Source: Acidiferrobacterales bacterium (GTDB lineage: Bacteria; Pseudomonadota; Gammaproteobacteria; Acidiferrobacterales; UBA6901). From it: a DNA stretch of 64,000 nt. Positions 3,591 to 64,000 of this stretch are shown piece by piece (the first letter of the stretch is position 1; each line of letters starts with the position of its first letter). Below the pieces are notes generated by a model. That model was not told the origin of the DNA and searched no databases. It saw nothing but the letters and a program-made list of their open reading frames with translations. The stretch is taken from positions 14,313 through 78,312 of the forward strand of contig DASWHF010000045.1 of the NCBI GenBank assembly GCA_036393295.1. The letters are read 5' to 3'. Made by a program: the position numbers and the translations under genes.

Positions 3591-5144
3591 ATGACATACA
3601 CGAAGAAGACTCCCTGGACTCTCATCATTGGCATTATCCTCGCTGCATACGCTTGGTTGATACACCAGGGCCATCTCAATGTAATGATGGAAGCCCTCAA
3701 GACCACGAAGTTGGCCGGAGAGATGTACACCCTCGGCTATATCTTCGGCGCCATCGGCATCGTCGTCGGCCTGTGGCAACTGTTCTACAAACACAAATCC
3801 GGACATGCCGACTATTTCCTCTCCACCGTCGGCGGCGCCCTGCTTATCATTCTATGCGTTTTCGTCGTCAAGTTCGGTGCCGAGCCGCTGTTCAAGATGT
3901 GGGGCGCGATGTCGTACAAGGCGATCGGCTGGGATTTCGCCAAGACCCTCGGCTTCAACTACATCCTGCTCGGCATCATCACCGGCATGGTGGTGGTGAA
4001 CGTCTTCAAGGTCCCGGACTGGGCGGAGAACGGCGTGCGGCTGTCGCGTCTCGGCCTCAAGACCGGCGTCATCCTGCTGGGCGCCCTGTACAGCGCCGCC
4101 GAGCTGGCCGAGTACTCGAAATGGTCGGTCGGCCTGATCTTCGTATTCGTGCTCGGCTCGGTCGGCCTCACCCTGTGGCTGGGCCGCCTGCGCAAAATCT
4201 CGAACTCGATGGGCGGCGTGCTCTCGGCCGGTCTCGGCGTGTGCGGCGTCTCCGCGGCGGTGGCCTCGGCGCCGGTGGTGAATGCCAAGTCGAGCGAGAT
4301 CGCCTACACCATCGGCACCATCCTGTTGTGGGGCGTGCTGATGATGTTCATCTTCCCGCCGGTCGGCCGTGCCCTCGGGCTCACCTATGAGCAGTTCGGG
4401 GCCTGGGCCGGCACCGGCATCCTCAACTCGGCGCAGGTGGCGGCCGCCGCCCTCATCTACCAGCCGCACGGCATCGAGACCCTCAAGGTCGCCGAGATCT
4501 TCAATATCACCCGCATCCTGGCGCTGCCGATCATCGTGCTGTGGCTGGCGGTGTGGTACGTGGAGCGCGAGCAACACGCCGTCAAGGTCAACCTGCTGCA
4601 GGTGATCGTCGGTAAGTTCCCGCTGTTCGTGCTGGGCTTCATCGTGCTGTTCCTGTTGTCCACCACCGGCATGTTCATGCCGGAAAGAAATGACGGCAAG
4701 GGCAAGTACATGGACCCGGTCAAGGCCAAGGCGCTGAAGGACGAGCAGATCGTGGCCTTGCAGGAGGAACTGCCGAGGGTCGCCAAGCCCGAGGAACAGG
4801 CCGCCCTGCAGCGCCTGATCGAGACCAAGACGGTGCAGAGCCGGGCGGACGATGTGTTGTTGCGCGACTTGGCGTCGCTCGAGACCACCTCCAAGCCGGC
4901 GGTCGCGGCCCTCAAGGATGCGCACAAAAACGCCTGGATGACGGCGCCGCGCGTGGCCTGGTTCCGCGACGTGATCGTCTGGTTCTTCGCCTTCGGCCTC
5001 ACCGGCCTCGGCATGCAGATCACCTTCAAGTCGATCGCCCAGGCCGGCGGCCAACCGTTGTTCATCGGCACCGTGGTCGGCAGCGTCAAGGCGGTCGGCG
5101 CGCTGATCGCGATCCTGTTGCTCAAAGACCTGATCAACCCCTAA
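3591..5144 (+). CDS. YeiH/UPF0324-family membrane transporter (putative sulfate-exporter family) with a ~90-aa hydrophilic insertion
   Basis: Track ORF with Shine-Dalgarno AGGAGG 8 nt upstream. It is multi-TM. Family-like motifs GLGVCGVSAAVASAP and GAWAGTGILNSAQVAAAA are present. Residues ~363-455 are charged and helical rather than membrane-like. Confidence 0.75.
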   Translation: MTYTKKTPWTLIIGIILAAYAWLIHQGHLNVMMEALKTTKLAGEMYTLGYIFGAIGIVVGLWQLFYKHKSGHADYFLSTVGGALLIILCVFVVKFGAEPLFKMWGAMSYKAIGWDFAKTLGFNYILLGIITGMVVVNVFKVPDWAENGVRLSRLGLKTGVILLGALYSAAELAEYSKWSVGLIFVFVLGSVGLTLWLGRLRKISNSMGGVLSAGLGVCGVSAAVASAPVVNAKSSEIAYTIGTILLWGVLMMFIFPPVGRALGLTYEQFGAWAGTGILNSAQVAAAALIYQPHGIETLKVAEIFNITRILALPIIVLWLAVWYVEREQHAVKVNLLQVIVGKFPLFVLGFIVLFLLSTTGMFMPERNDGKGKYMDPVKAKALKDEQIVALQEELPRVAKPEEQAALQRLIETKTVQSRADDVLLRDLASLETTSKPAVAALKDAHKNAWMTAPRVAWFRDVIVWFFAFGLTGLGMQITFKSIAQAGGQPLFIGTVVGSVKAVGALIAILLLKDLINP

Positions 5145-7281: not shown

Positions 7282-8394
7282 TCAGTCGTGGGGGCCGCAG
7301 GCCGCAGCCACCATGGCCTTCCACGCCTTGGGCGTGATGCCGAGGTCGACCGGCCGGTAGCCGGATTGATCGGCCAGGCCCTGAAGCCGGGCGATACGGT
7401 CGCGGGTTGCCGGGTGGGTGGAGAGGTAGCCCAGCGGGCCGGGATCCGGCCCGTCGTGTTTCTCCAGGACCCCGAAGAACTCGACCATGCCCCGGGCGTC
7501 CAGCCGCGCCCCCTGCATCATGTGCATGCCGCGCACGTCCGCCTCGGTTTCCGCGGCGCGACTGTAGCTCAAGCCGTGCAGCGACTCGGCGGTTTCCAGC
7601 ACCGTCGCGGTGGCGCCGCCCAGATCGCCGACCAGCAGTGACAGCAACAAACGGTTCGACATGCGGCGGAACAGGGATTTGGTGCCGTGGCGCTGCAGCA
7701 CGTGCTGCATCTCGTGGGCCAGCACGCCGGCGAGCTGTTCGGGGCGCGTGGTGTCCTGGAGGAGCCCGGAAAACACCACGATCCCACCGCCGGGCGCCGC
7801 CAGGGCGTTGACCGTCGGATCATCGACCAGGGTGACCCGGAAGTCGTAGGGATGCGCCGGCGCCGCACGGTCGAGGCGCGCCACCAGATCGTCGATCACC
7901 GGTCGGACCGCCCCACCCTCGCAGACCTTGAGGTCCCCGACCAGGCTCTCGACCACGGTATCGCCGAGCTTCTCCTCCCACTCCACCGGCACCCGTTCGG
8001 CCATCGCCTCGGCGGCCGCCGGAATCCCCCACAGATACAGCGCCGCGCCGGCCAGGATGCCGCCGACCGCCGCCGCCGCGACCCACAGCGGCCGGCCGCG
8101 ACGGCGCGCCGGATTGTGCAGCCGGCGCGCCGCCTGCGGCGCGGTCGCGTGAATGGCCGCGAGAAAGGCGATGTCGTCGACAATGATGGCGTCGACCGGG
8201 ACCTGCGTGCCGCGCTCGAGGCGCACCGGCTCGCCGGCGTAGCGCCCCTGGGTCTGGGTGATGTCGGCGTAGCGCCAGATCATCACCCCCGCGGGCGCGG
8301 CAATGCGCAGCGCCTCGCGGCCGATGCCGATCTCGACGTCCACCGTCCCGGCGCTGACGCCGTCGAGGTAGCGCCCGCTCCAGAGCCGCTGCAT
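7282..8394 (-). CDS. M48-family zinc metallopeptidase with N-terminal domain and TM segment
   Basis: HEMQH (HExxH) motif and a central TM segment WVAAAAVGGILAGAALYLW. It lies immediately downstream of the DUF898 gene. Confidence 0.8.
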   Translation of the reverse strand: MQRLWSGRYLDGVSAGTVDVEIGIGREALRIAAPAGVMIWRYADITQTQGRYAGEPVRLERGTQVPVDAIIVDDIAFLAAIHATAPQAARRLHNPARRRGRPLWVAAAAVGGILAGAALYLWGIPAAAEAMAERVPVEWEEKLGDTVVESLVGDLKVCEGGAVRPVIDDLVARLDRAAPAHPYDFRVTLVDDPTVNALAAPGGGIVVFSGLLQDTTRPEQLAGVLAHEMQHVLQRHGTKSLFRRMSNRLLLSLLVGDLGGATATVLETAESLHGLSYSRAAETEADVRGMHMMQGARLDARGMVEFFGVLEKHDGPDPGPLGYLSTHPATRDRIARLQGLADQSGYRPVDLGITPKAWKAMVAAACGPHD

Positions 8395-8400
8395 GCGCGG

Positions 8401-9357
8401 CTAACCGAGCGCCGAACCGATATCCAGCGCGTCCGCCAGGCCCTCGCCGGTGGCGCCCACGCGCGCCTGGGCGTCCTGCTGCACGCGCGTCCAGTCGACC
8501 TGGCCCTCCATCAGCGTGTTGTCGAACTGGTAGCGCAGCGTGCGGATCAGCACCCAGGGGAAGGCCAGGCCGAGGGTCACGACGACCAGCAGCAGATTGC
8601 TGATCGTCAGCCACAGCAGGCCGCCGCCGGTGTAGGTCGAGCGGAACGGCGCCTCGGCAAATTGGGTATGCGCCCAATCGAAGCGATGCACCTTGGCGGC
8701 GAACCAGAACCAGACGAGATACAGGGTCGGGATCGTCAGCAGGATGGCCAGCAGGTAGCCGCCGATCAGTTCCTTGGCATCGGCCTGAAAGCGGAACGGC
8801 GTGTTGCCGAAATAGGTGTTGTTCACCCAGTAGCTGCGCATGCGGGTGCGGAACCACGGGTAATAGATGCCGAGGGTCAGCAGGGTCAGCAGCATGCCGC
8901 CCAGGTAGGTGCTGATGCACTCCTTGAGGTCGCCGCGAAACGAGAAGCGGATGCCGCGCCAGGAGGTGCGGCTCAGCGCGTAGCGCATGGCGCCGTAGAG
9001 CGCAAACGGGATCGCCACCAGGATGGCGAGATACAGCAGCAGCACGGCGACGTCGCCGATCAGCATCTGCGCGATCACCAGCAGCACATAGAACAGCACG
9101 ATCAGGCCGAAGGCCTTGAGCGCGCCGATGAACAGTTCCTTGCCGCGGCCGTGGTAGGCGAAGCGATCGCCGGTGAACTCGGTCTGGCCATAGAGATAGC
9201 GCCGCACCCGCACCTTGGCCCAGAAACTGTAGATGCCGAGCGTGACGATGGTGAGCAGCAGATTGACGATCTGTATGCCGAACAGGGTCCCGCCCTGGCC
9301 GTGGAAACGCAGGCGCTGCGGGGTGGCCGCGCGGGCGGCCGGTGCCGTACTGGTCAT
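8401..9357 (-). CDS. YjgN/DUF898-family inner-membrane protein
   Basis: Repeated TM hairpins with TLGIYSFW / TLGIYYPW / TLGLAFPW motifs, characteristic of DUF898. Confidence 0.75.
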   Translation of the reverse strand: MTSTAPAARAATPQRLRFHGQGGTLFGIQIVNLLLTIVTLGIYSFWAKVRVRRYLYGQTEFTGDRFAYHGRGKELFIGALKAFGLIVLFYVLLVIAQMLIGDVAVLLLYLAILVAIPFALYGAMRYALSRTSWRGIRFSFRGDLKECISTYLGGMLLTLLTLGIYYPWFRTRMRSYWVNNTYFGNTPFRFQADAKELIGGYLLAILLTIPTLYLVWFWFAAKVHRFDWAHTQFAEAPFRSTYTGGGLLWLTISNLLLVVVTLGLAFPWVLIRTLRYQFDNTLMEGQVDWTRVQQDAQARVGATGEGLADALDIGSALG

Positions 9358-9513
9358 GGTGGTCCTCGCCTTGGTCAGTGAGAATTATTAATTGAACCGG
9401 CCGACGGCCGGCGCTGCTCTTGAGTTTAGCAAAGGATCCGGCCGCCGCCGGGCGCCCTGGACCGTCGGCGGCGCGGCGCGTAGTATCGGCGTTTTTTTTC
9501 GGAGCCCGCCCCC

Positions 9514-10653
9514 ATGTCCGATCTGGACGACCTGCTCGAGCAGGAATTCCCGGTGGAACGGAATTTCCGCTACCTCAACCATGCCGCGGTCGCGCCCTGG
9601 CCGTTGCGCACCGGCAACGCGGTGCGCGCGTTCGCCGCCCAGAACGTCGACATGGGCGCGCGCGACTACAACGACTGGGTCGAGACCGAGCAGGGCCTGC
9701 GCCGCCGGCTCGCCGCGCTGGTCCATGCCCCCTCCCCCGACGACATCGCCCTTACCAAGAACACCTCCGAGGCGCTGTCCATGGTGGCCCACGGCTTTCC
9801 CTGGAACGACGGCGACAACGTGGTGATCGCCGCCGAGGAGTTCCCCTCCAACCGCATCGTCTGGGAATCGCTCGCGGGGCGCGGTGTGACCACGCGCCCG
9901 GTGACGCTGACCGGCGTCGACGATCCCGAGACGGCGCTGCTCGCGGCGATCGACGGGCGCACGCGGATCCTGGCGGTGAGCTCGGTGCAGTATGGCCTCG
10001 GCCTGCGGGTGAAACTCAAGAAGCTCGGCGCCGCCTGCCGCGCGCGCGGCGTGGCCTTCTGCGTCGACGCCATTCAGGGTCTCGGCGTGTTCGACCATAA
10101 TGTGCAGGCGGCGAACATCGATTTCCTCATGGCCGACGCCCACAAGTGGCTGCTCGGTCCGGAGGGCATCGCGGTGTTCTACTGCTCGGCGGCGTGGCGC
10201 GAGAAACTGACTCTGCATGAATACGGCTGGCACATGGTCGAGGACCTCTACGACTTCGAGCGCCGCGCCTGGCGGCCGGCGCGTTCGGCACGACGTTTCG
10301 AATGCGGCAGCCCCAACATGCTCGGCATCCACGCCTTGAGCGCCAGCCTGTCGCTGTTCGAGGAGATCGGGCTTCCGGTGATCGAGAAGCGCGTGCTGGC
10401 GCGCGCCGAATACCTGTTCGAGATCATCAAACAGTATCCCGATCTGGAGCTGTTGAGCGACCCGCGCCCCGGGCGCTATGCCGGCATCGTCACCTTCCGC
10501 CACCGTCGCCATGCCGTCGACAAGCTGTACGACGCGCTGCGCGGCCAGAATGTCGTGTGCGTGCCGCGCGGTGGCGGCATCCGCTTCTCGCCGCACTGCT
10601 ATACGCGCATCGAGACCCTCCAGGAGGCGCTGGAGATCGCAAACTTATCTTAG
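9514..10653 (+). CDS. aminotransferase class V / cysteine-desulfurase-like PLP enzyme
   Basis: Track ORF with class V fold motifs, including the DAHKW PLP-lysine region. Confidence 0.75.
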   Translation: MSDLDDLLEQEFPVERNFRYLNHAAVAPWPLRTGNAVRAFAAQNVDMGARDYNDWVETEQGLRRRLAALVHAPSPDDIALTKNTSEALSMVAHGFPWNDGDNVVIAAEEFPSNRIVWESLAGRGVTTRPVTLTGVDDPETALLAAIDGRTRILAVSSVQYGLGLRVKLKKLGAACRARGVAFCVDAIQGLGVFDHNVQAANIDFLMADAHKWLLGPEGIAVFYCSAAWREKLTLHEYGWHMVEDLYDFERRAWRPARSARRFECGSPNMLGIHALSASLSLFEEIGLPVIEKRVLARAEYLFEIIKQYPDLELLSDPRPGRYAGIVTFRHRRHAVDKLYDALRGQNVVCVPRGGGIRFSPHCYTRIETLQEALEIANLS

Positions 10654-18458: not shown

Positions 18459-19202
18459 TCAATTCATGTACATGCCGCCGTTCACGTGCAGGGTGATGCC
18501 GGTGATATAGCCGGCCTGCGGCGAGGCCAGGAAGGCGACCGCATGCGCGATGTCCTCGGCCTGCCCCAACCGCCCCAGCGGAATCTGCTGGATCAGCGCG
18601 CCGCGCTGCTCCTCGGAGAGCGCGCGCGTCATGTCGGTGTCGATGAAGCCCGGCGCCACCGCGTTCACCGTGATGTTGCGCGAGCCGATCTCGCGCGCCA
18701 GCGCCCGCGTGAAACCCATCACCCCGGCCTTGGCGGCGGCATAGTTGGTCTGGCCGGGATTGCCCGTGGCGCCGACCACCGAGCCGATGCTTATAATACG
18801 TCCTTTACGGGCCTTGGTCATGGCGCGCAGGCAGGCCTTGGACATGCGGTAGAGGGACTTGAGGTTGGTCTCCATGATGGCGTCCCACTCCTCGTCCTTC
18901 ATGCGCATCAACAGGTTGTCGCGGGTGATGCCGGCATTGTTCACCAGGATGCTGGGGGCGCCGGCGCCTTTCTGCATATGTTCGAGGAGCTGATCGATCG
19001 ATGCCGGATCGGTCACGTTGAGCACTGCACCCTCGCCTTTAATTCCGTTTTCTTTCAATATATTGCTAATCTTTTGTGCGCCATCACTTGAGGTTGCGGT
19101 GGCGATCACCGTGGCGCCCTGCCGGCCCAGCTCGAGGGCGATGGCCCGGCCGATGCCGCGGCTCGCGCCCGTCACCAGGGCGATCTCTCCAGTCAATGAC
19201 AT
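18459..19202 (-). CDS. fabG: 3-oxoacyl-ACP reductase
   Basis: TGASRGIGRAIA Rossmann motif, YAAAK catalytic motif, and position in the fab cluster. Confidence 0.95.
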   Translation of the reverse strand: MSLTGEIALVTGASRGIGRAIALELGRQGATVIATATSSDGAQKISNILKENGIKGEGAVLNVTDPASIDQLLEHMQKGAGAPSILVNNAGITRDNLLMRMKDEEWDAIMETNLKSLYRMSKACLRAMTKARKGRIISIGSVVGATGNPGQTNYAAAKAGVMGFTRALAREIGSRNITVNAVAPGFIDTDMTRALSEEQRGALIQQIPLGRLGQAEDIAHAVAFLASPQAGYITGITLHVNGGMYMN

Positions 19203-19218
19203 TTCGCGTGCGTCCCTC

Positions 19219-20172
19219 TTATTTCGCCGGCCGGGCGGCCGCTCCCACGGCGCCCAGGGCCAGCTTCAGGCTGTCGTCGTCGTACACCGGCAAGGTCGTG
19301 GCCTCCTTGGCGATGCGCTTGTTGAGCCCGGTCAGCACCCGGCCCGGGCCGCATTCTACCAGCTTGTCGACCCCGTCGGCGGCCATTTTCCGGACGATTT
19401 CCACCCAACGTACCGGCGACTCGATCTGCCGGACGAGCGCCTGCTTGATGGCCTCCGGGTCCTGCTCGGCGCGCACGTGGGCGTTGTGCAGCACCGGAAT
19501 CGCCGGCTTGCGCAGGCTGATGTCGGCAAGCCGCTCGGCCATGCGCTGCGCGGCCGGCTTCATCAGGGCACAGTGCGACGGCACGCTGACCGGCAGCATC
19601 ACGGCGCGCTTGGCGCCGGCGGCCTTGGCCTGCTCGACGGCCCGTTCCACCGCCGCCGCCGTGCCGGCGACCACCACCTGGCCCGGCGAATTGAAATTGA
19701 CCGGCGCCAGCACCTCGCCCTCGGCGGCCGCCTCGCATAGCTGCTTCACCTGCTCGTCTTCCAGGCCCAGGATCGCCGCTATGCCGCCCTGCCCCGGCGG
19801 CACCGCCTCCTGCATGTAGCGACCGCGGTCGGTGACCAGCTTGACGGCGGCGATGAAGTCGAGCGCCCCGGCGCAGGTCAGGGCCGTGTACTCACCGAGG
19901 CTGTGGCCCGCCATCACCACCGGCGCCGGCCCGCCGGCCTCACGCCACACGCGCCACACGGCGACTCCGGCCGCCAGCATCGCCGGCTGGGTATGTTCGG
20001 TCTGGTTGAGCCGCTCTTCGGGCCCGTCCGCGACCAGCTTCCACAGATCGTAGCCGAGCGCGCCCGAGGCCTCGGTGAAGGTGTCCTTCACCTGCGGGTG
20101 CCGGGCCGCCAGGTCGGTGAGCATGCCGACCGATTGCGAGCCCTGTCCGGGGAAAACGAATGCCAATGACAT
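19219..20172 (-). CDS. fabD: malonyl-CoA:ACP transacylase
   Basis: FVFPGQGSQ and GHSLGEY motifs. Confidence 0.95.
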   Translation of the reverse strand: MSLAFVFPGQGSQSVGMLTDLAARHPQVKDTFTEASGALGYDLWKLVADGPEERLNQTEHTQPAMLAAGVAVWRVWREAGGPAPVVMAGHSLGEYTALTCAGALDFIAAVKLVTDRGRYMQEAVPPGQGGIAAILGLEDEQVKQLCEAAAEGEVLAPVNFNSPGQVVVAGTAAAVERAVEQAKAAGAKRAVMLPVSVPSHCALMKPAAQRMAERLADISLRKPAIPVLHNAHVRAEQDPEAIKQALVRQIESPVRWVEIVRKMAADGVDKLVECGPGRVLTGLNKRIAKEATTLPVYDDDSLKLALGAVGAAARPAK

Positions 20173-20214
20173 AATTTTAAGGCCCGTATGGAATCTGCGT
20201 GATTTTCCGGCGCA

Positions 20215-21183
20215 TCAAAAAGTGAGCAGCACCGAGCCCCAGGTGAAGCCGCCGCCGAAGGCCTCCATGAGCACGGTATCGCCGCGCTCGATGCGGCCGT
20301 CGCGCACCGCCTCGTCGAAGGCCAGCGGGATCGAGGCGGCCGAGGTGTTGCCGTGCCGGTCGACCGTCACCACCACATGGTCCATGGACATGCCGAGCTT
20401 CTTGGCGGTGGCGCTGATGATGCGGATATTGGCCTGGTGCGGCACCAGCCACTTGACGTCGCTCTTCTGCATCTTGTTGGCCTCGAGGGTCTCGTCGACG
20501 ATGCGCCCGAGGGTGTTGACCGCGACCTTGAAGACCTCGTTGCCCTGCATCTGCACGTAGGCCTCATTGCGCATGACCTGGTCGTAACCCTGCGAGATGC
20601 CGGCCGGCACCGTCAGCAGCTCCTTGTACTGGCCGTCGGCGTGCAGGTGCGAGGAGATGATGCCCGGACGCGCGTCGGGCTTCAGCACCACCGCGCCGGC
20701 GCCGTCGCCGAACAGCACGCAGGTGCCGCGGTCGGTCCAATCGACGATGCGCGACAGCGTCTCGGCGCCGACCACCAGCGCGCACTTCGCGCTGCCGAGC
20801 CGCAGGAACTTGTCGGCGATGTCGAGCGCGTAGACGAAACCGGTGCACACCGCCTGCACGTCGAAGGCCGCGCAGCCGTGGATGCCGAGCCGCTCCTGCA
20901 GCAGGCAGGCGGTGCTGGGGAAGATGCGGTCGGGCGTGGTGGTGGCGACGATGATGAGGTCGATCTCCGCCGGATCGGTGTCGGCCGCGGCCAGCGCCTT
21001 GCGCGCGGCCCGTTCGGCCAGGTCGCAGGTGGTCTCGCCGTCGGCGGCGATATGGCGCTCGCGGATGCCGGTGCGCGAGACGATCCACTCGTCCGTGGTA
21101 TCGACCATCTTTTCCAGATCGGCGTTGGTCAGGACCTTGTCGGGAAGGTGACCGCCGGTGCCGACGATGCGTGAATGTGTCAT
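20215..21183 (-). CDS. fabH: 3-oxoacyl-ACP synthase III
   Basis: Full-length KAS III-like ORF ([10 protein letters not shown] active-site Cys region). ATGA overlap with the plsX stop. Confidence 0.95.
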
Positions 21184-22214
21184 GCGGTCTCGCTGGTGCT
21201 CTGCGGGGTGCTCAGCATGGATGCCAGACGGCGGCCGATCAGCTGCGGAACCTCCTTGTGCGCCTCGGACAGCGCCACCAGGATGGCGCGCTCGAAGGCG
21301 TAGGCATCGGCGCTGCCATGGCTCTTGATGACCACGCCGTTGAGGCCCACCAGGGTCCCGCCATTGTAGTGGCGCGGATCCACGCTGCGCCGGAAGGCCT
21401 TGATCACCGGCAGCGCGATCAACCCGGCCAGCCGGGTAAAGGTATTCCGCATGAATGCCTGCTTCATCATCTGCGAAATCATCTTGGCCAGCCCCTCGCT
21501 CGCCTTCATCGTCACGTTGCCGACGAAGCCGTCACAGACAATGACGTCGGCCTTGCCGGTGAAGATCTCGTCGCCTTCCACATAGCCGCCGTAGTGGATG
21601 CCGCTGGCGCGCAGCAGCTCGGCGGCCTTCTTTACGGTGTCGTTGCCCTTGATGTCCTCGACGCCGATGTTGAGTAGGCAGACCTTGGGGTCGGGCTTGC
21701 CCTCGATCGCGCCGACCAGCAGCGACCCCATGATGCCGAACTGCAACAACTGTTCGGGCGTGGAGTCGACGTTGGCGCCGAGATCCAGTATGTGCACGTG
21801 ACCGTGCAGGGTCGGCCAAGCGGTGATGATCGCCGGCCGGTCGATGCCCGGCAGCGTCTTGAGCACGAAGCGCGCCGTGGCCATGAGCGCCCCGGTGTTG
21901 CCGGCGCTGACGCAGGCATCGGCCGCGCCCTCCTTGACGAGATTGATGGCCACGCGCATGGACGAATCCTTCTTGCCGCGCAGCGCCTGGGCCGGCGGCT
22001 CGTCCATGCCGACCGTCTCGGAGGCGTGCCGGATGATCAGGCGCGGCCCCTCGGTGCGGCGCCGGGCCGCCAACGCCTCGCGCAGCGCGTCCGCGCGCCC
22101 GACCAGTATCAGCTTGAGGTCGGGCTGCCGGTCGTGCACCGCCAATGCGGCGGGAACGGTGACGCTGAGGCCATGGTCGCCCCCCATGGCGTCCAGAGCG
22201 ATGGTGACGGTCAA
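21180..22214 (-). CDS. plsX: phosphate acyltransferase PlsX
   Basis: [16 protein letters not shown]-terminus and conserved position. Confidence 0.95.
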
Positions 22215-22252
22215 GGGCGACTACCCCGCATCGGCCTCAGAGCCCGCTCGGG

Positions 22253-22432
22253 TCAGTCGGACTTCGTGTCGATGACCTTGCGCCCGCGATAGAAGCCGCT
22301 GGCGCTGACATGGTGGCGTCGGTGGGTCTCGCCGCTGGTCGGCTCGATGGAGAAATTGGGCGTCTTCAGAGCATCGTGCGAACGGCGCATCCCGCGTTTC
22401 GACGGCGTCTTGCGACTCTTTTGAACTGCCAT
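22253..22432 (-). CDS. rpmF: 50S ribosomal protein L32
   Basis: The internal ATG of the track ORF gives [22 protein letters not shown], 59 aa. Confidence 0.95.
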
Positions 22433-50628: not shown

Positions 50629-53187
50629 ATGGCCAAAGGGGGGTTCCTCAAACGGGACGCGCTCGTCGCCCTGGTCCTGGCGTTGGTGTTCATCGTGGCG
50701 GTGATCGCCGACCTGCGCCTGCTGAGCAACCTCGAGGCCATCGCCTACGACGCCGGCGTCGGGATGACCGGCCGCAAGCCGGGCGCCTCCGAGCAGATCG
50801 CGCTCATCACCATCGACGACGACAGCATCCGCGAGCTCGGCCGCCTGCCGTGGCCGCGCAACGTGCTCGGCGACATGATCCTCAAGCTCTCCCAGGCGCG
50901 CGCGCGGCTGATCGCGCTGCAGATCCTGCTGAGCGAACCCCAGACCGATCCCGGCCTCGTGCAGCTGCGCGAGATCGAGCAGTTCGTCACCGACAACGCC
51001 GGCCTGCGCCGGCGCGCCCCGCGCGAAGCCGCCGAGCTGCGCAACCGGCTGGCGCGCGCGACGCGCGAGCTCGATGTCGACGCGCAGCTCGCCGCCGCCT
51101 TGCCGCGCGCGCGCAACGTGCTGATGCCGATGTTCTTCCAGGAAGGCCGCCCGCTCGGCCGCGCCGACCAGCCGCTGCCGGATTTCGTCCAGCGCAACCG
51201 CCTGACACGGGTCGTGATCCCACCGAACAGCGGCGCCCGCGCCCCGACCGCGGTCGACGCCACCGTGCCGCTCGAGATCTTCGGTCGCCACATCGCCGGC
51301 GTCGGTCATCTCAACGTCCTGCCCGACAGCGACGGCGCGGTGCGCACCGATGCCCTGGTGATGCAGTACTACGACGAGTACTACCCGTCGCTGGCGCTGA
51401 TGATCGCGGCGCGCTCGCTCAACCTCGACGCCCGGGACATCAGCGTGACGCTCGGCGAGCACGTGACGCTCGGCAAACTCACGCTCGAGACCGACGACCG
51501 TGCGCGTTTGTACTCGGGTTTCTATCCGCGCAGCGAGCGCCGTGAACCGCCGTTCGCGCGGTACTCCTTCCACGAGGTGCTGAGCGGCAAGATCGATGCG
51601 CGCACCTTCCGCGACAAGATCGTCCTGATCGGCGCCACTGCCCAGGGCGTCGGCCATCGTCTGGTGACGCCGGTGGACCGCGCGATGCCGGAGCTCGAGC
51701 TGACCGCCAACAGCGTGGCCAGCATCCTCAACGAGGATTTCTACCGCCGGCCGGAGTGGGCGCTGTGGGCGGAAATGGGCATCTGGCTCACGATCGTCCT
51801 GTATCTCATGTTCATGCTGCCGCGCGTCGCCGCCGGGCCGGGCGGGTTCGTGTCCTTCGTGCTGTTCGCCGGCCTGCTGACCGGCGCGCACTATCTGCTG
51901 GTCACCCAGCAGTTGTGGCTGCAGACCGTGGCGCCGGCGCTGCTGCTGCTCACCGGCCACCTGGTGCTGGTCACCAAGCGCTTCTTCGTCACCGAGCGGC
52001 TCAAAGTGCAGGTCGAAGCCGATTCCGCCCAGACCAACCGCATCCTGGGCCTGAGCTACCAGGGCCAGGGCCAGCTCGACTCGGCGATGGACAAGTTCCG
52101 CTCGCTGCCGGTCGACGATTCGGTGCTCGATCTGATCTACAACCTGGCGCTGGATTTCGAGCGCAAGCGCCAGTTCAACAAGGCCGCGGCCGCCTACGAC
52201 TACATCCTCGAGCACCGCGACAAGTTCCGCGACGCCGCGGAGCGCCGCGAGCGCGCCCGTCAGGCCGAGAACAGCTTAATCATCGGCGGCGGTCGCGCCG
52301 GACCGGGCGGCACGCTGATCCTCGACGGCGCCGACCAGAAGCCGACGCTCGGCCGCTATGAGCTCGACCGCGAGCTCGGCAAGGGCGCGATGGGCGCGGT
52401 CTACCTGGGGCGCGACCCGAAGATCAATCGGGTGGTCGCGATCAAGACCATGGCGCTGTCCGAGGAGTTCGCCGGAAGCGACCTGGCCGACGTCAAGGCG
52501 CGCTTCTTCCGCGAGGCCGAGACCGCCGGCCGCCTCAACCACCCCTATATCGTCACCATCTACGACGCCGGCGAGGAGCACGACCTCGCCTACATCGCCA
52601 TGGAATACCTGGAGGGCAAGGACCTGACCGAATTCATCCGGCCCGACCGGCTGCTGCCGGTGCACGAGGCGGTCGACATCGTCTGCAAGGTCGCCGAGGC
52701 CCTGGACTATGCCCACCAGAACGACGTGGTGCACCGCGACATCAAACCGGCCAATATCATGTATGATCAGGCCAAGCAGTCGGTCAAGGTGACGGACTTC
52801 GGCATCGCCCGCATCACCGCCTCGAGCCGCACCAAGACCGGCGTGATCCTCGGCACGCCGTCCTACATGTCGCCGGAGCAACTCGCCGGCAAGCATCTCG
52901 ACGGGCGCACCGATCTGTTCTCGCTGGGGGTCACCTTGTTCGAGCTGCTCACCGGCGGGCAGCCGTTCAATGGGGATTCGATGGCGACGTTGATGTACCA
53001 GATCGCGAATGAGCGTCACCCGGACGTCACCCGACTCCGCGAGGGTCTCCCATCCTGCTTCAAGACCGTGCTCGACAAAATGCTCAACAAAAATCCCGAT
53101 AAACGCTATCAGAGCGGCATCGAGCTGCGCGACGCGCTGCTCCGCTGCCAGCGCGCCACCGTGCCACGCAAGGCGGGGGCGTCATGA
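50629..53187 (+). CDS. CHASE2 sensor domain / TM / TPR-like linker / Hanks-type Ser/Thr protein kinase
   Basis: N-terminal TM plus a CHASE2-like periplasmic region (IALITIDDDSIRELGRLPWPR), three TM helices at ~aa 385-460, a helical repeat linker, and a kinase domain (GKGAMGAVYLG, AIK, HRDIKPAN, DFGIA, SPE). Confidence 0.85.
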   Translation: MAKGGFLKRDALVALVLALVFIVAVIADLRLLSNLEAIAYDAGVGMTGRKPGASEQIALITIDDDSIRELGRLPWPRNVLGDMILKLSQARARLIALQILLSEPQTDPGLVQLREIEQFVTDNAGLRRRAPREAAELRNRLARATRELDVDAQLAAALPRARNVLMPMFFQEGRPLGRADQPLPDFVQRNRLTRVVIPPNSGARAPTAVDATVPLEIFGRHIAGVGHLNVLPDSDGAVRTDALVMQYYDEYYPSLALMIAARSLNLDARDISVTLGEHVTLGKLTLETDDRARLYSGFYPRSERREPPFARYSFHEVLSGKIDARTFRDKIVLIGATAQGVGHRLVTPVDRAMPELELTANSVASILNEDFYRRPEWALWAEMGIWLTIVLYLMFMLPRVAAGPGGFVSFVLFAGLLTGAHYLLVTQQLWLQTVAPALLLLTGHLVLVTKRFFVTERLKVQVEADSAQTNRILGLSYQGQGQLDSAMDKFRSLPVDDSVLDLIYNLALDFERKRQFNKAAAAYDYILEHRDKFRDAAERRERARQAENSLIIGGGRAGPGGTLILDGADQKPTLGRYELDRELGKGAMGAVYLGRDPKINRVVAIKTMALSEEFAGSDLADVKARFFREAETAGRLNHPYIVTIYDAGEEHDLAYIAMEYLEGKDLTEFIRPDRLLPVHEAVDIVCKVAEALDYAHQNDVVHRDIKPANIMYDQAKQSVKVTDFGIARITASSRTKTGVILGTPSYMSPEQLAGKHLDGRTDLFSLGVTLFELLTGGQPFNGDSMATLMYQIANERHPDVTRLREGLPSCFKTVLDKMLNKNPDKRYQSGIELRDALLRCQRATVPRKAGAS

Positions 53188-53981
53188 GCGGGCTCGCCAT
53201 GAGCGGCCTCACCCATCCCGGGCAGGTGCGCGACCGGAACGAGGACGCCTTCCTGCTCGAGCCCGCCAACGGCATCGCCGTGCTCGCCGACGGCATGGGC
53301 GGCCACCAGGCCGGCGAGGTGGCGAGCGCCATGGCGGTCGATCTCATCACCCGCCACCTGCGCGAGGCGGCGGATGCGCGCGCCCCGGGCAAGCCCCGCC
53401 CCGCGACCGCCCTGGGCGACGCGGCGATCGACGCGATCCGCAGTGCCAACCAGGCGATCTTCGACGCCGCGCGCAGCAAACCCGAATACGCCGGCATGGG
53501 CACGACCGTGGTGGTCGCGTTGTTCGACGCCAACAAACTGTGGGTGGCGCATGTCGGCGACTCGCGGCTGTATCGCTTCCGCGGCGGCCGGCTCAGCCAG
53601 ATCACCGTCGATCACTCCATGGTCCAGGAACTGCTCAACCGCGGGCTGATCAGCGAGGAGGAGGCGCGCACCTCGGCCAACAAGAACCTGGTGACGCGCG
53701 CGCTCGGCGTCGATACGCAGGTCGAGCCGGACGTCCAGGAGCAGACATTTCTCAAGGGCGACGTCTACCTCCTGTGCTCCGACGGGCTCACCGACGTCCT
53801 GCCGGACGCGGACATCGAGCGCATCCTGCAGCAGCATCGCGACGCGCTCGACACCGCAGTCCAGCAACTGGTCGACGAGGCCAACGCGCGCGGCGGCCCG
53901 GACAACGTTTCCGTCGTGCTGGTGCGCACCGACAAGCGCTTCGCGCGCGACAAACAGCCGTCGGCGGACGCCACGGCTTGA
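53184..53981 (+). CDS. PP2C-family Ser/Thr phosphatase
   Basis: ATGA overlap with the kinase gene. Motifs RDRNEDAF, LADGMGGH, GTTVV and CSDGL. Confidence 0.88.
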   Translation: MSGLAMSGLTHPGQVRDRNEDAFLLEPANGIAVLADGMGGHQAGEVASAMAVDLITRHLREAADARAPGKPRPATALGDAAIDAIRSANQAIFDAARSKPEYAGMGTTVVVALFDANKLWVAHVGDSRLYRFRGGRLSQITVDHSMVQELLNRGLISEEEARTSANKNLVTRALGVDTQVEPDVQEQTFLKGDVYLLCSDGLTDVLPDADIERILQQHRDALDTAVQQLVDEANARGGPDNVSVVLVRTDKRFARDKQPSADATA

Positions 53982-54045
53982 CAAACCGGTATCGACTTTA
54001 TTCAATGCCCAATCAAAATGCCGCACGCTTAAGCGAGATGCAACC

Positions 54046-54705
54046 ATGGCGAAAATAACGATCAAATTTGACGACGTGGTGATCGACCAGCTGGTCATCA
54101 AACCGGGGGACATGTCCATCGGCCGGCGCCCCGGCAGCGACATCTTGCTCGACAACCTCGCGGTCAGCGGCAACCACGCCACGATCTTCACGGTCGGCGA
54201 GGATTCCTTCATCCAGGATCTCAACAGCACCAACGGGACCTTCGTCAACAACGTCAAGATCACCAAGCACCATCTCAAGGACGGCGACACCGTCGTGATC
54301 GGCAAGCACGCGCTGGTCTACAACAACGAGAACGCCGCGCGCGCGCCGGCCGACAATCTCGCCAAGACCATGATCATCACGCCGCCGCGCAAGGCCGACG
54401 ACGCAGTGACCGATCCGCGCCCGGCGGCCGGCGCCGAGCCGCGCCGCGGCTCCATTTTCGTGCTGAGCGGCGCGAACAGCGGCAAGCGCATCGAGATCAC
54501 CAAGGCGGTCACCAACCTCGGCCACGGCGGCAAAGTCGCCGGCGTGATCAACCGCAACGCCAGCGGCGGCTACATCCTGGTGCCCGGCGGCCAGGGCGAG
54601 TTGCTCAAGCTCAACGGCAACCCGGTGCCGGGCCGCGGCGAGACGCTCAAGAACGGCGACGTCATCGAGATCGCCGGATCGCGCATGCAGTTCTATCTCA
54701 AATAG
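54046..54705 (+). CDS. FHA-domain protein (canonical N-terminal FHA plus degenerate C-terminal FHA-like domain)
   Basis: N-terminal SIGRRPGSDILLDNLAVSGNHATIF...NSTNGTFVNN...GDTVVIG. The C-terminal 85 aa have FHA-like spacing (NGNPV...LKNGDVIEIAGSRMQF) but lack the SR/H/S..NG phosphopeptide-binding residues. Confidence 0.8.
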   Translation: MAKITIKFDDVVIDQLVIKPGDMSIGRRPGSDILLDNLAVSGNHATIFTVGEDSFIQDLNSTNGTFVNNVKITKHHLKDGDTVVIGKHALVYNNENAARAPADNLAKTMIITPPRKADDAVTDPRPAAGAEPRRGSIFVLSGANSGKRIEITKAVTNLGHGGKVAGVINRNASGGYILVPGGQGELLKLNGNPVPGRGETLKNGDVIEIAGSRMQFYLK

Positions 54706-60435: not shown

Positions 60436-61181
60436 GGCGCTCTTTGTCTGACGACTTCGAACAGACAAATGCCCGCCGCCACTGAGACATTCAGGCTCTC
60501 AACGGAGCCCGCCATCGGAATTCTGGCCAGAAAATCGCAGCGCTCCCGCGTCAGGCGCCGCAGCCCCCGCCCCTCCCCGCCCAGGACCAGGGCCAGGGGG
60601 ACGGTGAGGTCCAGGGTATAGACCGCCTGCTCGGCGTTGCCGTCCGCCCCCACCAGCCACACTCCCGCCTCCTTGAGCTGGTCCAGGGCGCGCGCCAGGT
60701 TGGTGACGGCGAGCAGCGGCAGCACCTCGGCGGCACCGCTGGCCGCCTTGCGGGCCGCCGCGGTGAGCGGCGCGGCATTGTCCTTGGGAACAATGACGGC
60801 CTGGGCGCCGGCGGCGGCCGCGCTGCGCAGGCAGGCGCCGAGATTGTGGGGGTCCTGGACACCGTCCAGCACCAGCAGGAACGGCGTCGCCTCGAGCCCG
60901 GCCAGAAACGCCGGCAGGTCCTCGGATACCACCGGCGCGCCGGCGCGCAGCACGGCCGCCACTCCCTGGTGCCGGGCCCCGGCGGCCAGCGCATCGAGCC
61001 GGGCGCCGGGCACGCGCTCGACCGGGATGCCGCGGGCGCGCGCGGCGTCCAGCAGTTGCTGGGGCCGCGCGCCCTGGTGCTTGATGTCCAGCCAGATACG
61101 CTCGAGGCGCTCGGGATGGCGGGCGAGCGCCGCGCGCACCGCATGCCAGCCGTACAGCGAGGCCTCGGGCATGGCGGGCAC
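60423..61181 (-). CDS. rlmB: 23S rRNA (guanosine-2'-O)-methyltransferase RlmB (SpoU family)
   Basis: SpoU/TrmH motifs (LVLDGVQDPHNLGA, LVLGGEGRGL, IPMAGSVESLNVSVA). A GTG start at 61181 abuts the rnr stop. An alternative ATG lies at 61172. Confidence 0.9.
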   Translation of the reverse strand: MPAMPEASLYGWHAVRAALARHPERLERIWLDIKHQGARPQQLLDAARARGIPVERVPGARLDALAAGARHQGVAAVLRAGAPVVSEDLPAFLAGLEATPFLLVLDGVQDPHNLGACLRSAAAAGAQAVIVPKDNAAPLTAAARKAASGAAEVLPLLAVTNLARALDQLKEAGVWLVGADGNAEQAVYTLDLTVPLALVLGGEGRGLRRLTRERCDFLARIPMAGSVESLNVSVAAGICLFEVVRQRAPNSK

Positions 61182-63505
61182 TAGCGCCGGCGGCGCTTGG
61201 ACCGGCCGCGGCGCTTGCCGGCCTTGCCGGGTTCCGTCTTGGCCGCGGCCGCGCGCGCCGGCTTGGCGGTCTTGTGTTTGCCGCGCCGGCCGCCGCGCGT
61301 GCGTCCGCCGTCCGGCGACGCGGCCCGCGCCACCAGCTCGAAATCGAGCTTGGCCTCGTCGAGATCGACACGCACCACGCGCACCTTGAGCGGGTCCCCG
61401 AGCCGGAATACCTCGTTGCTGCGCTCGCCGATCAGGCGGTGCTTGGCGGCGTCGAAGTGATAATAGTCGTTGCCGAGCGAGCTGATGTGCACCAACCCGT
61501 CGACATAGATCTCGGCCAGCTCCACGAACAGGCCGAAGCTGGTGACGCCGCTGATGATGCCATCGAACTCCTCGCCGATCTTGTCCTGCATGTACTCGGC
61601 CTTGAGCCAGCGGATCACGTCGCGGGTCGCGTCATCGGCGCGCCGCTCGGTCACCGACAGGTGCTCGCCCTGACCCAGCGCCTCGGCATCGGTGATGCGC
61701 GCCGGCCTGCGCTGGAGAATCGACTTGATGGCGCGGTGCACGATCAAATCCGGATAGCGCCGGATCGGCGAGGTGAAGTGCGCGTAGTTCGGGTAGCCGA
61801 GCGCGAAGTGCCCGATGTTGTCGGGGCTGTAGATCGCCTGGCTCAGGGAACGCAGCATGACGGTGTGGATGAGGCGCGCGTCCGGGCGCTCGCCGACCGT
61901 CGCCAGCAGCCGGGCGTAGTCGCGCGCCTGCGGCTCGTCGCCGCCGCCGAGCTCCAGACCCAGCTCGGACAGGAACTCGCGCAGCGCCGCGAGCTTCTCG
62001 GGCGTCGGGCCGGCGTGCACGCGGAACGGCACCGGCATCTTGTGCTCGATCAGGAGCTCCGCGGCGCAGACGTTGGCCGCGAGCATGCACTCCTCGATCA
62101 GCTTGTGCGCGTCGTTGCGCACCACCGGCTCGATGCGCTCGATCTTGCGTTCCGCGTTGTAGACGATGCGCGTCTCCGGCAGCTCGAAGTCTACCGCGCC
62201 GCGCTTGGCGCGCGCCTCGTGCAGCACCTGGTAGAGCGCGTACAGGGTCTCGAGGTGCGGCACCAGTGGCGCGTATTGCCTGCGCAAGGTCGCATCGCCG
62301 TCGACCAGCATCGCCGCCACCTGGGTATAGGTGAGGCGCGCTTGCGAGCGCATGACCGCCTCGAAGAAGCGGAAGTCCTCGATCCGGCCGCGCGCGCTGA
62401 CCTTCATCTCGCAGGCCATGCACAGCCGGTCGACTTCCGGGTTGAGCGAGCACAGCCCGTTCGACAGGATCTCCGGCAGCATCGGGATGACGTGGTTGGG
62501 AAAATACACCGAGTTGCCGCGCTGATAGGCCTCGGCGTCGAGCGCGCTGCCGGGCTTGACGTAGCTGGCGACGTCGGCGATCGCCACGATCAGCCGGAAG
62601 CCCTTGCCGACGCGCTCGCAGAACACCGCATCGTCGAAATCGCGCGCGTCCTCACCGTCGATGGTGACGAGCGGCGTGGCGCGCAGGTCTTCGCGGCCAT
62701 GCTTGGCGGACTCCGGCACCTGCGGATCGAGCCCCGACACCTCGCCCTGCACGGCGTCCGGCCACTCGTGCGGCAGCTCGTACATGCGGATCGCGACTTC
62801 GATCTCCATGCCCGGCGCCATATGATCGCCCAGCACCTCGACGATCTTGCCCTGCGGCTGGCCGCGCCGGCTCGGCTGTTCGACGATCGCCGCGACCACG
62901 ATCTGGCCGTCGCGCGCGTCGCCGGCCGCGCCCTGCGGGATGAGAATGTCCTGGTTGATGCGCTTGTCGGACGGCACCACGACGCCGATGGCGTTCTCCT
63001 GCACGTAGCGACCGACCACCGTGCGGTGGGCGCGCTCCAGCACCTCGATGATCGCACCCTCCTTGCGGCCGCGCGGATCGACGCCGGCGACGCGCGCCAC
63101 CGCCCGGTCGCCGTGCAGCAGCTGGCGCATCTCGCGCGGGCTCAGGAACAGGTCCTCGCCGCCCTCGTCCGGCACCAGGAAGCCGAAGCCGTCCGGGTGC
63201 CCGATCACCCGGCCGCGCACCATGTCCATCTTGTCGATCAGCGCGTAGCGGCCGCGCCGGTTCTTGAGCAGCTGGCCGTCGCGCTCCATGGCGCGCAGCC
63301 GGCGGCTGAAGGACTCGATGTCGCGCTCGCCGTCGACGCCGAGCCCCTGGGCCAGGCGTTTGAGGGACAGCGGCTCGCCGCACTCCGCCAAATGGCTGAG
63401 CACCGCCTCGCGGCTCGGCACCGGGTGCTCGTATTTCTGCGCCTCGCGCTCGGCCATGGGATCGGCCTGCGAACTGTCTGAGCCGGCGGGTTTCTGCGTT
63501 GACAT
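61181..63505 (-). CDS. rnr: ribonuclease R
   Basis: Cold-shock-like N-terminus, RNB core, an S1 domain and a Lys/Arg-rich tail. Conserved rnr-rlmB order. Confidence 0.95.
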   Translation of the reverse strand: MSTQKPAGSDSSQADPMAEREAQKYEHPVPSREAVLSHLAECGEPLSLKRLAQGLGVDGERDIESFSRRLRAMERDGQLLKNRRGRYALIDKMDMVRGRVIGHPDGFGFLVPDEGGEDLFLSPREMRQLLHGDRAVARVAGVDPRGRKEGAIIEVLERAHRTVVGRYVQENAIGVVVPSDKRINQDILIPQGAAGDARDGQIVVAAIVEQPSRRGQPQGKIVEVLGDHMAPGMEIEVAIRMYELPHEWPDAVQGEVSGLDPQVPESAKHGREDLRATPLVTIDGEDARDFDDAVFCERVGKGFRLIVAIADVASYVKPGSALDAEAYQRGNSVYFPNHVIPMLPEILSNGLCSLNPEVDRLCMACEMKVSARGRIEDFRFFEAVMRSQARLTYTQVAAMLVDGDATLRRQYAPLVPHLETLYALYQVLHEARAKRGAVDFELPETRIVYNAERKIERIEPVVRNDAHKLIEECMLAANVCAAELLIEHKMPVPFRVHAGPTPEKLAALREFLSELGLELGGGDEPQARDYARLLATVGERPDARLIHTVMLRSLSQAIYSPDNIGHFALGYPNYAHFTSPIRRYPDLIVHRAIKSILQRRPARITDAEALGQGEHLSVTERRADDATRDVIRWLKAEYMQDKIGEEFDGIISGVTSFGLFVELAEIYVDGLVHISSLGNDYYHFDAAKHRLIGERSNEVFRLGDPLKVRVVRVDLDEAKLDFELVARAASPDGGRTRGGRRGKHKTAKPARAAAAKTEPGKAGKRRGRSKRRRR

Positions 63506-63576: not shown

Positions 63577-63663
63577 GCCGAGGTGGCGGAACTGGTAGAC
63601 GCGCTAGGTTCAGGTCTTAGTGGGGGCAACCCCGTGGAGGTTCAAGTCCTCTCCTCGGTACCA
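63577..63663 (+). tRNA. tRNA-Leu (anticodon CAG), CCA encoded
   Basis: 87 nt. Acceptor GCCGAGG/CCTCGGT, anticodon loop TTCAGGT, long variable arm TGGGGGCAACCCCGT, T-arm GGAGGTTCAAGTCCTCT. Near-identical layout to the E. coli Leu(CAG) tRNA. Confidence 0.92.
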
Positions 63664-64000
63664 CAATTATTTCGGGTCGTCGCATCCACGTCGACGAGCC
63701 GCAGGACGCCGGCGTAGTTCCCCGTCAGCTCGGCCTCCAGGTGCCCGTCCCGCGGGTGCAACGGCACCTCGCCGATGAGGCGGCGCAGCTGCGCCCGGGC
63801 GCGCGTCACGTCCCGGAGCGTGACCGCTTCCAGGTTCTCCACCATGTCGCGGAACCGCTCGACCGCCCGCGGCAGGATGTGACCCACCTTCTCCAACTTG
63901 CGCGCCCCAGAGCTCAAGGATGCGAGCAGCTTGTCGCGCTCGGATTCCAGCCGCTCGAGCTCGCCCTTCGTCGTCGGCGTGATGACGCCGGCCCGGATCG
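63642..64000 (-). CDS. large serine recombinase, C-terminal ~118 codons (gene continues past the right edge)
   Basis: The minus-strand frame is open to the window edge: ...IRAGVITPTTKGELERLESERDKLLASLSSGARKLEKVGHILPRAVERFRDMVENLEAVTLRDVTRARAQLRRLIGEVPLHPRDGHLEAELTGNYAGVLRLV... This is the coiled-coil and C-terminal tail pattern of large serine recombinases. The track ORF 63642..63917 is only its TTG-delimited end. Confidence 0.6.
   Translation of the reverse strand, partial: IRAGVITPTTKGELERLESERDKLLASLSSGARKLEKVGHILPRAVERFRDMVENLEAVTLRDVTRARAQLRRLIGEVPLHPRDGHLEAELTGNYAGVLRLVDVDATTRNNCGTEERT

Follow-up and report, generated by a model that had tools for sequence, protein, structure and literature searches.

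An internally deleted large serine recombinase gene ending inside tRNA-Leu(CAG), and the probable fossil of its integrative element in an Acidiferrobacterales genome

At the right-hand end of the DNA analysed here (the window, a whole stretch of 64,000 nucleotides), a minus-strand reading frame that is still open at the last nucleotide runs into a gene for tRNA-Leu(CAG) and stops there. A sequence-only reading of the window took this frame for a serine recombinase gene at the edge of an element integrated into the tRNA gene. Is the frame a recombinase gene, is that gene intact, and what lies between the tRNA and the next chromosomal genes? We examined these questions in the window, in a nearly identical contig that extends beyond it, and in related loci. 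Handles beginning with L denote loci or contigs and those beginning with P denote proteins.

The window-edge frame and its tRNA

ARAGORN called a single tRNA in the window, tRNA-Leu(CAG), which scored 47.6 bits against Rfam RF00005 (gathering score 29); an intact tDNA is thus present at one end of the island described below. The neighbouring gene is rnr (Table 1). The tRNA adjoins rnr in L001, L002, L005, L010, L012, L013, and L014, that is, wherever the related contigs reach far enough, and the order tRNA-Leu-rnr-rlmB-rpsF is kept in L001, L012, and L014. Its acceptor stem opens with a G1-U72 wobble (GCCGAGG / CCTCGGT; 63577-63583 with 63653-63659), and the 12-nt 3' end that contains U72 did not vary among the related loci examined, nor does the displaced 12-nt copy described below depart from it. 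The RNase R product on record begins at Met17 (63457), the first ATG being at 63505; an exact database match was obtained from the shorter form only, and the product read from the first ATG gave none. Elsewhere in the window, a cluster of an FHA-domain protein, a PP2C phosphatase, and a CHASE2 Ser/Thr kinase lies downstream of radA and is also kept in L012.

Table 1 Features of the locus. Window positions marked eq. are window-equivalents of L008 positions beyond the window edge.
Feature	Window position	Strand	L008 position	Basis
rnr (RNase R), chromosomal anchor of the site, outside the element	61181..63457	-		ORF list; exact 758-aa product on L008
tRNA-Leu(CAG), intact, integration target (attB side)	63577..63663	+		ARAGORN; Rfam RF00005
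Relic LSR gene, 3' 357 nt (118 codons + stop) of 221 codons	63642..64000	-		translation; homology to LSR C-termini
Relic LSR gene, full ORF	start 64307 (eq.)		9151-9816	
ORF/tRNA overlap, 22 nt, T-arm + 3' acceptor strand	63642..63663	.		ARAGORN tRNA call + translation
12-nt direct repeat, tRNA-proximal copy, TCCTCGGTACCA on + / TGGTACCGAGGA on -	63652..63663	.	9795-9806	second exact copy in L008
12-nt direct repeat, far copy	65692-65703 (eq.)		7755-7766	
198-aa ORF	64324-64920 (eq.)		8538-9134	
FHA/PP2C/CHASE2 kinase cluster	~51181-54705		18753-22277	

The minus-strand frame is open from 63998 to 63642 and terminates in ..VDVDATTRNNCGTEERT at a TGA (63644-63642) in the T-arm. As had been proposed from the sequence, the frame is open at 64000 and ends inside tRNA-Leu(CAG), 22 nt in. 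In the overlap lie six complete codons (G T E E R T) and the stop, preceded by a single base of a Cys codon; the earlier count of seven codons plus stop was about one codon too many, which is immaterial. Homologous ORFs of eight other loci finish likewise inside the same tRNA. Furthermore, the 22-nt geometry was also found in intact genes of L013 and L014, at tRNA-Leu(CAG), and of a Nitrospira japonica large serine recombinase (LSR), at tRNA-Ala(CGC). A chance overlap of ORF and tRNA was considered and is ruled out, because the same overlap recurs in homologues at many loci.

Pfam alone was silent on the visible piece of the frame: its 118 residues gave no significant match, only a sub-threshold one to TBCA_PH. 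A word-indexed protein search with this fragment returned four short proteins of 76-100 aa (79-88% identity), two of which end in ..NNCGTEERT while a third carries ..GTEERT, and no full-length protein. An exhaustive HMMER (phmmer) search of 1.84 billion representatives gave 316 matches, many of them 540-590 aa long, and the fragment aligned to the last ~105 residues of these proteins with E ~1e-18 and ~50% identity (for example, P0012 with an E of 1e-18 and 53% identity). Resolvase, Recombinase, and Zn_ribbon_recom domains were present in all seven matches tested (P0012, P0029, P0035, P0043, P0060, P0076, and P0088). Because of this homology to full-length LSRs, the frame was assigned to the serine recombinase family: judged by its sequence, the window-edge ORF is the C-terminal tail of an LSR by descent.

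The 221-aa relic and the 2.0-kb remnant

The gene was followed beyond the window edge in a proxy contig, L008 (metagenome contig ENA ERZ27256989, 31 kb), which was found via the exact RNase R product starting at Met17. In an ungapped alignment of 12,820 nt, L008 and the reverse complement of the window differ at 9 positions (99.93% identity), and the two are 100% identical across the tRNA/ORF junction, where the shared 601 nt were compared. Window position 64000 corresponds to L008 position 9458, and the DNA past 64000 in the window's own contig is presumably that of L008.

In L008, the full ORF encodes 221 aa and starts 307 nt past the window edge. The product is identical to NCBI HEX9626406.1, annotated as a 'recombinase family protein' on an Acidiferrobacterales MAG contig of 91,549 nt, and is present on two more contigs besides; L008, L009, L010, and L011 all have the 221-aa form. 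BLASTP of this protein against the intact 554-aa P0183 aligned residues 1-66 with residues 1-66 (85% identity) and residues 66-221 with residues 399-554 (74%). A further alignment agreed with this two-block map, and the intact three-domain proteins that align to the two blocks are 544-595 aa long. Therefore, parent residues 67-398 were removed by an in-frame deletion. Collinear homology to full-length three-domain LSRs is present in what is left, by phmmer and by BLASTP against P0183. The window sequence ends 106 nt before the deletion junction, and the 221-aa structure is taken from the 99.93%-identical L008 together with the exact match to HEX9626406.1.

Profile searches of the full ORF, which the sequence-only reading had put forward as a check, matched the Resolvase profile (PF00239) at positions 1-70 of 145 only. 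Pfam found neither a Recombinase domain (PF07508) nor a zinc beta-ribbon (Zn_ribbon_recom, PF13408) in the 221-aa relic; both were found in the intact P0183, P0179, and P0206. A complete N-terminal resolvase catalytic domain is absent from the relic: the YARYSS motif with its serine is kept, and the part aligned to SRLxRD is deleted along with all that follows within the catalytic domain. By what is established for serine recombinases, a protein missing the second half of its catalytic domain together with both DNA-binding domains is unable to recombine DNA. Because exactly these parts are gone, the 221-aa protein is predicted to be unable to bind or recombine DNA, and by domain content, the relic having no DNA-binding domains, a functional integrase is absent from the island. 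The description of the gene as a serine recombinase accordingly holds for its descent, as judged by homology, and fails for a working enzyme.

Proceeding away from the tRNA, L008 carries the relic, a 198-aa ORF, an HTH_3 antitoxin gene (higA), a HigB-like toxin gene (PF05015), a far repeat, and purA, followed by the core genes hisZ, hflC, hflK, hflX, hfq, and miaA; purA and the core genes begin 2.2 kb from the tRNA. The repeat, TGGTACCGAGGA, matches the tRNA's final 12 nt when these are read as the reverse complement. Its second exact copy lies in the same orientation 2,040 bp from the copy in the tRNA and 138 nt past the purA stop. Shuffled sequences contained no second 12-nt copy, and none is expected by chance. 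When a longer tRNA-derived repeat was sought in L008 with a 25-mer and up to 3 mismatches, the tRNA itself was the sole match. GC content is 51-64% between the repeats and ~70% in the flanks, and the genes that separate purA from rnr, both core genes, constitute a break in gene content, being higBA, one orphan ORF, and the integrase relic. No tyrosine integrase of the Phage_integrase type was among the genes called from purA to the tRNA in L008 and L009.

The island is a remnant of 2.0 kb, because it comprises the relic, one ORF, higBA, and the 12-nt copy of the tRNA end, after which purA follows; the remnant should be immobile, judging from its gene content. In the proxy contig, then, the integration into the 3' end of the tRNA that the sequence-only reading had proposed is borne out. 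A second direct copy of the tRNA 3' end does lie to the right, exact over 12 nt and 2,040 bp away. This tRNA-derived repeat and the GC dip delimit the inserted DNA, and with the repeat and both a compositional and a gene-content break present in L008 the integration reading survives. The defence or other accessory cargo that had been expected outside the window is not there, since only ~2.0 kb with the relic, the 198-aa ORF, and higBA precede the core genes. Nothing in this content points to hidden defence cargo, and the toxin-antitoxin pair is the only cargo that can be recognised.

The 198-aa ORF, which lies between higA and the relic, has a GC content of ~51-57%, no Pfam match, and a charged middle section rich in Glu and Arg. 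The counterpart position in L013 is occupied by a Trypsin_2 protein, with no detectable similarity by BLASTP.

Related loci, attachment sites, and competing explanations

Two related loci carry intact integrase genes at the same site. L013 has the gene order higB-higA-one ORF-LSR, the LSR being a 556-aa three-domain protein whose gene ends 22 nt inside tRNA-Leu(CAG). This order is that of L008, and HigB and HigA are 70-71% identical between the two loci. Because gene order and HigBA are shared with L013, we regard the stump at the window edge as the integrase-proximal end of an L013-like element. In L014 (GCA_040960175.1, contig JBFOMP010000424.1), phage-like genes precede a gene for a 525-aa three-domain LSR that ends 22 nt inside tRNA-Leu(CAG), with rnr-rlmB next; no far-end repeat of this intact element was found within the 10 kb examined. 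L013 contains a second LSR gene (365-2209, 614 aa), which crosses a 12-nt fragment of the tRNA-Leu end and carries on for ~30 codons in the element that follows. A second TGGTACCGAGGA lies inside the end of this gene at 2107-2118, as expected for tandem elements, and L013 looks like a tandem array in which an older integrase has gained a different C-terminal tail.

Other copies are in various states of decay. A scan of genome contigs gave one locus, L001, among the matches listed. This locus, from another Acidiferrobacterales MAG, holds a frameshifted remnant of ~85 codons, several toxin-antitoxin-like genes, and a displaced tRNA-end copy (19 nt exact, or 21/22 nt with one mismatch) 33 nt after purA. 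The repeat is 12 nt in L008, whereas identity to the tRNA extends over ~21 nt in L001; the two loci may therefore record different events or element variants. L005 has a higBA 92% identical to that of L008 and a 100-codon remnant, and by its sequence it derives from the L008-type arrangement by a further, nested deletion. L002 has a 76-codon remnant beside a PEP-CTERM gene. In L012, a 347-aa N-terminally truncated copy has kept the Recombinase and zinc-ribbon domains. The neighbour there is not purA, and the far side of the site has therefore been rearranged in that genome. Upstream of the truncated LSR gene of L012 (within 1-1714) lies a glutathione S-transferase gene, and the two share 4 nt at the stop of the latter.

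The far repeats offer a view of the attachment sites. In both L008 and L013, the far copy diverges from the tRNA directly after GAGGA and continues as AC(C/G)G(G/C)TAC, so that the break point and the flank motif are common to the two loci (GAGGA/AC.G.TAC, with the slash at the break). To reconstruct an attP, the end of the LSR gene was linked to the flank on the far side, which gave the form ..CGAAATAATTGTGGTACCGAG-GA-ACSGSTAC... This attP is an imperfect palindrome with the final GA as its centre; the L008 version is AATTgtGGTACCGagGAacCGGTACCtgAATT. With the centre picked after seeing the data, 15/25 positions are dyad-symmetric in L008 and 13/25 in L013, as against 5-11 in the junction sites and 7-8 in the reconstructed attB sites. 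For serine integrases, short att sites suffice and no host factors are needed. Short att sites with a non-palindromic central dinucleotide would fit both the 12-nt repeat and the dyad-symmetric attP, and the crossover dinucleotide is probably the GA of TGGTACCGAG-GA on the minus strand (63652-63653). A metagenome scan for the reconstructed empty attB gave 0 matches, and no free attP was found in the metagenome scans. The element-side arm, TGGTACCGAGGAACSGSTAC, had 12 matches in such a scan, in four unrelated flank contexts and none of them beside an integrase 3' end; these matches were rejected as chance because the flanks are unrelated and no integrase 3' end adjoins them.

A model can be drawn from these sites. 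In live relatives, the LSR gene is the element's last gene, converging on the tRNA and entering it by 22 nt. The attP would overlap the end of the LSR gene and have 12 nt (TGGTACCGAGGA) in common with the tRNA 3' terminus, and strand exchange would probably take place at the GA that closes this shared block. In that event the tRNA would owe its last 12 nt to the element, and the ORF would take its last three codons and its stop from the body of the host tRNA. The earlier proposal that the tRNA was rebuilt from an attP copy could in this case stand for the last 12 nt, not for the whole 3' half, as the last three codons and the stop apparently belong to the host tRNA. In the genome studied here, the in-frame deletion of parent residues 67-398 would have taken the Recombinase domain and the zinc ribbon as well as what remained of the catalytic domain. 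Most of the element would also have been lost, and between the tRNA and the displaced 12-nt end at purA only the relic, the 198-aa ORF, and higBA would be left.

We put the probability at about 0.85 that the right-hand edge of the window falls within a fossil element, a small integrative one, which was inserted by an LSR into the 3' end of tRNA-Leu(CAG) and of which a gutted 221-aa relic in a remnant of ~2 kb is left. Of what speaks for this reading, the homology and the deletion map were observed directly, as were the GC dip, the repeat, and the synteny with intact elements. Three other explanations were weighed against it.

The 221-aa protein might instead be a domesticated fusion of a dimerising N-terminus with a coiled-coil/C-terminal tail, which might block related integrases or guard the tRNA-Leu site. 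Indeed, the deletion is in frame, the start codon is kept, and the 221 codons contain no internal stop, none of which a long-dead pseudogene need keep. The identical protein occurs in at least 3 samples, the C-terminal pieces are open in P0001-P0004, and dN/dS over the shared C-terminal piece is 0.08 between L008 and L002 (dS ~1). However, the states of decay vary by genome, with the L001 copy frameshifted, and dN/dS reaches 0.33, on few substitutions, between L008 and L005, the closest pair (dS 0.2), which share the relic by descent. A low dN/dS is expected anyway if the pieces diverged inside functional elements, and such divergence, while the genes still worked in separate elements, would most simply account for it. 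Because the divergence may predate the decay, dN/dS is uninformative on domestication. We consider a domesticated role very unlikely.

The remnant might also be composite, with higBA, the 198-aa ORF, and the 12-nt repeat derived from one or more other elements, such as an older tyrosine-integrase island, and the LSR relic a later tandem arrival. No tyrosine integrase gene or fragment was called between purA and the tRNA, and the same higB-higA-ORF-LSR order stands beside an intact LSR in L013 with the HigB/HigA identity given above. Tandem LSR elements do exist in L013, and the repeats of L008 and L001 differ in length (12 nt vs ~21 nt); the common break point and flank of the far repeats in L008 and L013 nevertheless argue against separate origins, and we hold this explanation to be very unlikely.

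It is very unlikely that an intact LSR extends past 64000 at the head of a large island carrying accessory or defence genes: the frame is open at the window edge, where the window's own DNA stops, and L014 has an intact LSR with prophage-like genes at exactly the same site, but L008, L009, L010, and L011, the first of them 99.93% identical to the window, have the 221-aa form, the identical protein is annotated on the 91.5-kb Acidiferrobacterales MAG contig, and purA and the core genes lie 2.2 kb from the tRNA.

LSR genes that end in tRNA genes

When the best 120 homologues of the L012 protein were grouped by C-terminal tail, 85 of the 120 tails read as reverse-translated tRNA 3' ends. The most frequent class was ..VAGAGFEPxxFGL/FRL (39), followed by ..GTEERT (18), ..GGGQGS (13), and ..GSGGRI (7). 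Four tails end in ..GLEPPRGCPH, which is another frame of the tRNA-Leu 3' end, confirmed on L012 DNA; two in ..GEDLNL, which reads as the remaining frame of the same tRNA-Leu 3' end; and two contain ..G[FV]EPPTPTL. Of the other 35 tails, many open like one of the classes and part from it further on, which is what non-integrated or distal copies should show.

Individual loci extend the range of targets. In Nitrospira japonica (LT828648.1; L028, 10001-11740), the gene for a 561-aa three-domain LSR ends 22 nt inside tRNA-Ala(CGC), with TerL-bearing prophage genes upstream. In L027, a proteobacterial LSR gene ends 41 nt inside a tRNA-Met-like gene with the anticodon CAT (4231-4304). This gene scored 38.5 bits with Rfam, received no ARAGORN call, and has several broken acceptor-stem pairs; it may be a hybrid or decaying tRNA. 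A tblastn search against plasmids gave three Azospirillum matches of ~37% identity, beside tRNA-Met and with no annotated genes beneath them. The Azospirillum brasilense Sp7 locus L007 (NZ_CP012915.1, 3524-4441) contains an unannotated 294-codon ORF with 37% identity that ends inside tRNA-Met(CAT), and this ORF is probably an LSR remnant of the same clade.

On balance, these sequences lead us to favour the view that the relic descends, as a fossil, from a large LSR clade which has hardly been described and whose attB lies in tRNA genes (tRNA-Leu(CAG), tRNA-Ala(CGC), and tRNA-Met-like). In this clade, attP would lie in the last integrase codons and crossover ~10 nt from the CCA end, so that the protein tail and the stop would come from the host tRNA in the integrated state and from element DNA in the excised state.

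Characterised phage LSRs integrate in protein-coding genes and are not known to use tRNA genes. Compared with LSRs of the phiC31/Bxb1/A118 type, the relic has two blocks that align to intact three-domain proteins but lacks residues 67-398, and it is not a functional member of that group. It shares with Islander-type tRNA islands an intact tDNA, a displaced 3' fragment as direct repeat, foreign DNA in between, and an integrase beside the tDNA; unlike them, it is of the serine family, its repeat is only 12 nt, its integrase ORF overlaps the tRNA, and no tyrosine integrase is present. A PF05015 toxin and an HTH_3 antitoxin lie beside the relic, outside the window, and also beside the intact LSR of L013, as in HigB/HigA type II modules carried as mobile cargo, and the putative toxin-antitoxin pair on the relic side shows nothing unusual relative to known HigB/HigA modules.

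According to a 2015 reference work on tRNA islands (Hudson et al., PMC4383910), tRNA genes are not known as targets of serine integrases; the remark in the sequence-only reading that a serine recombinase at a tRNA is less usual than a tyrosine integrase is thus apt, and this is the less documented case. The closest parallel found is provided by the ssrA islands of Dehalococcoides (McMurdie et al. 2011, PMC3146451). In these islands, a ~540-aa serine integrase, DsiB, described as a CcrB homologue, adjoins attL, insertion is in the 3' end of the tmRNA gene, and short direct repeats and tandem arrays occur, with the repeat embedded in the integrase gene in a relative. Compared by published description, the likeness extends to the serine integrase by attL, the 3' end of a tRNA-like gene, the short repeats, and the tandem arrays. 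The target is ssrA there and a tRNA here, however, and the small serine recombinase DsiA and the conserved six-gene module of those islands were not seen here; no second small serine recombinase was found beside the LSRs of L013, L014, and L028. The main text of Durrant et al. 2022 contains 0 occurrences of tRNA. Beyond PMC4383910 and PMC3146451, we found no description of tRNA-targeting serine integrases in the literature. Examples of this kind may already be listed in large island databases, and the clade is therefore at most under-described and not demonstrably new.

The locus itself is ordinary, a dead remnant with a toxin-antitoxin pair, and the clade is more interesting than this copy. 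What the locus offers is a pointer to full-length serine integrases, hundreds in number, with genes that stop within tRNA genes. Such a clade would widen the rule that a tRNA island means a tyrosine integrase and, by aiming at universally conserved tRNA 3' ends, could give ready-made integration tools for many bacteria.
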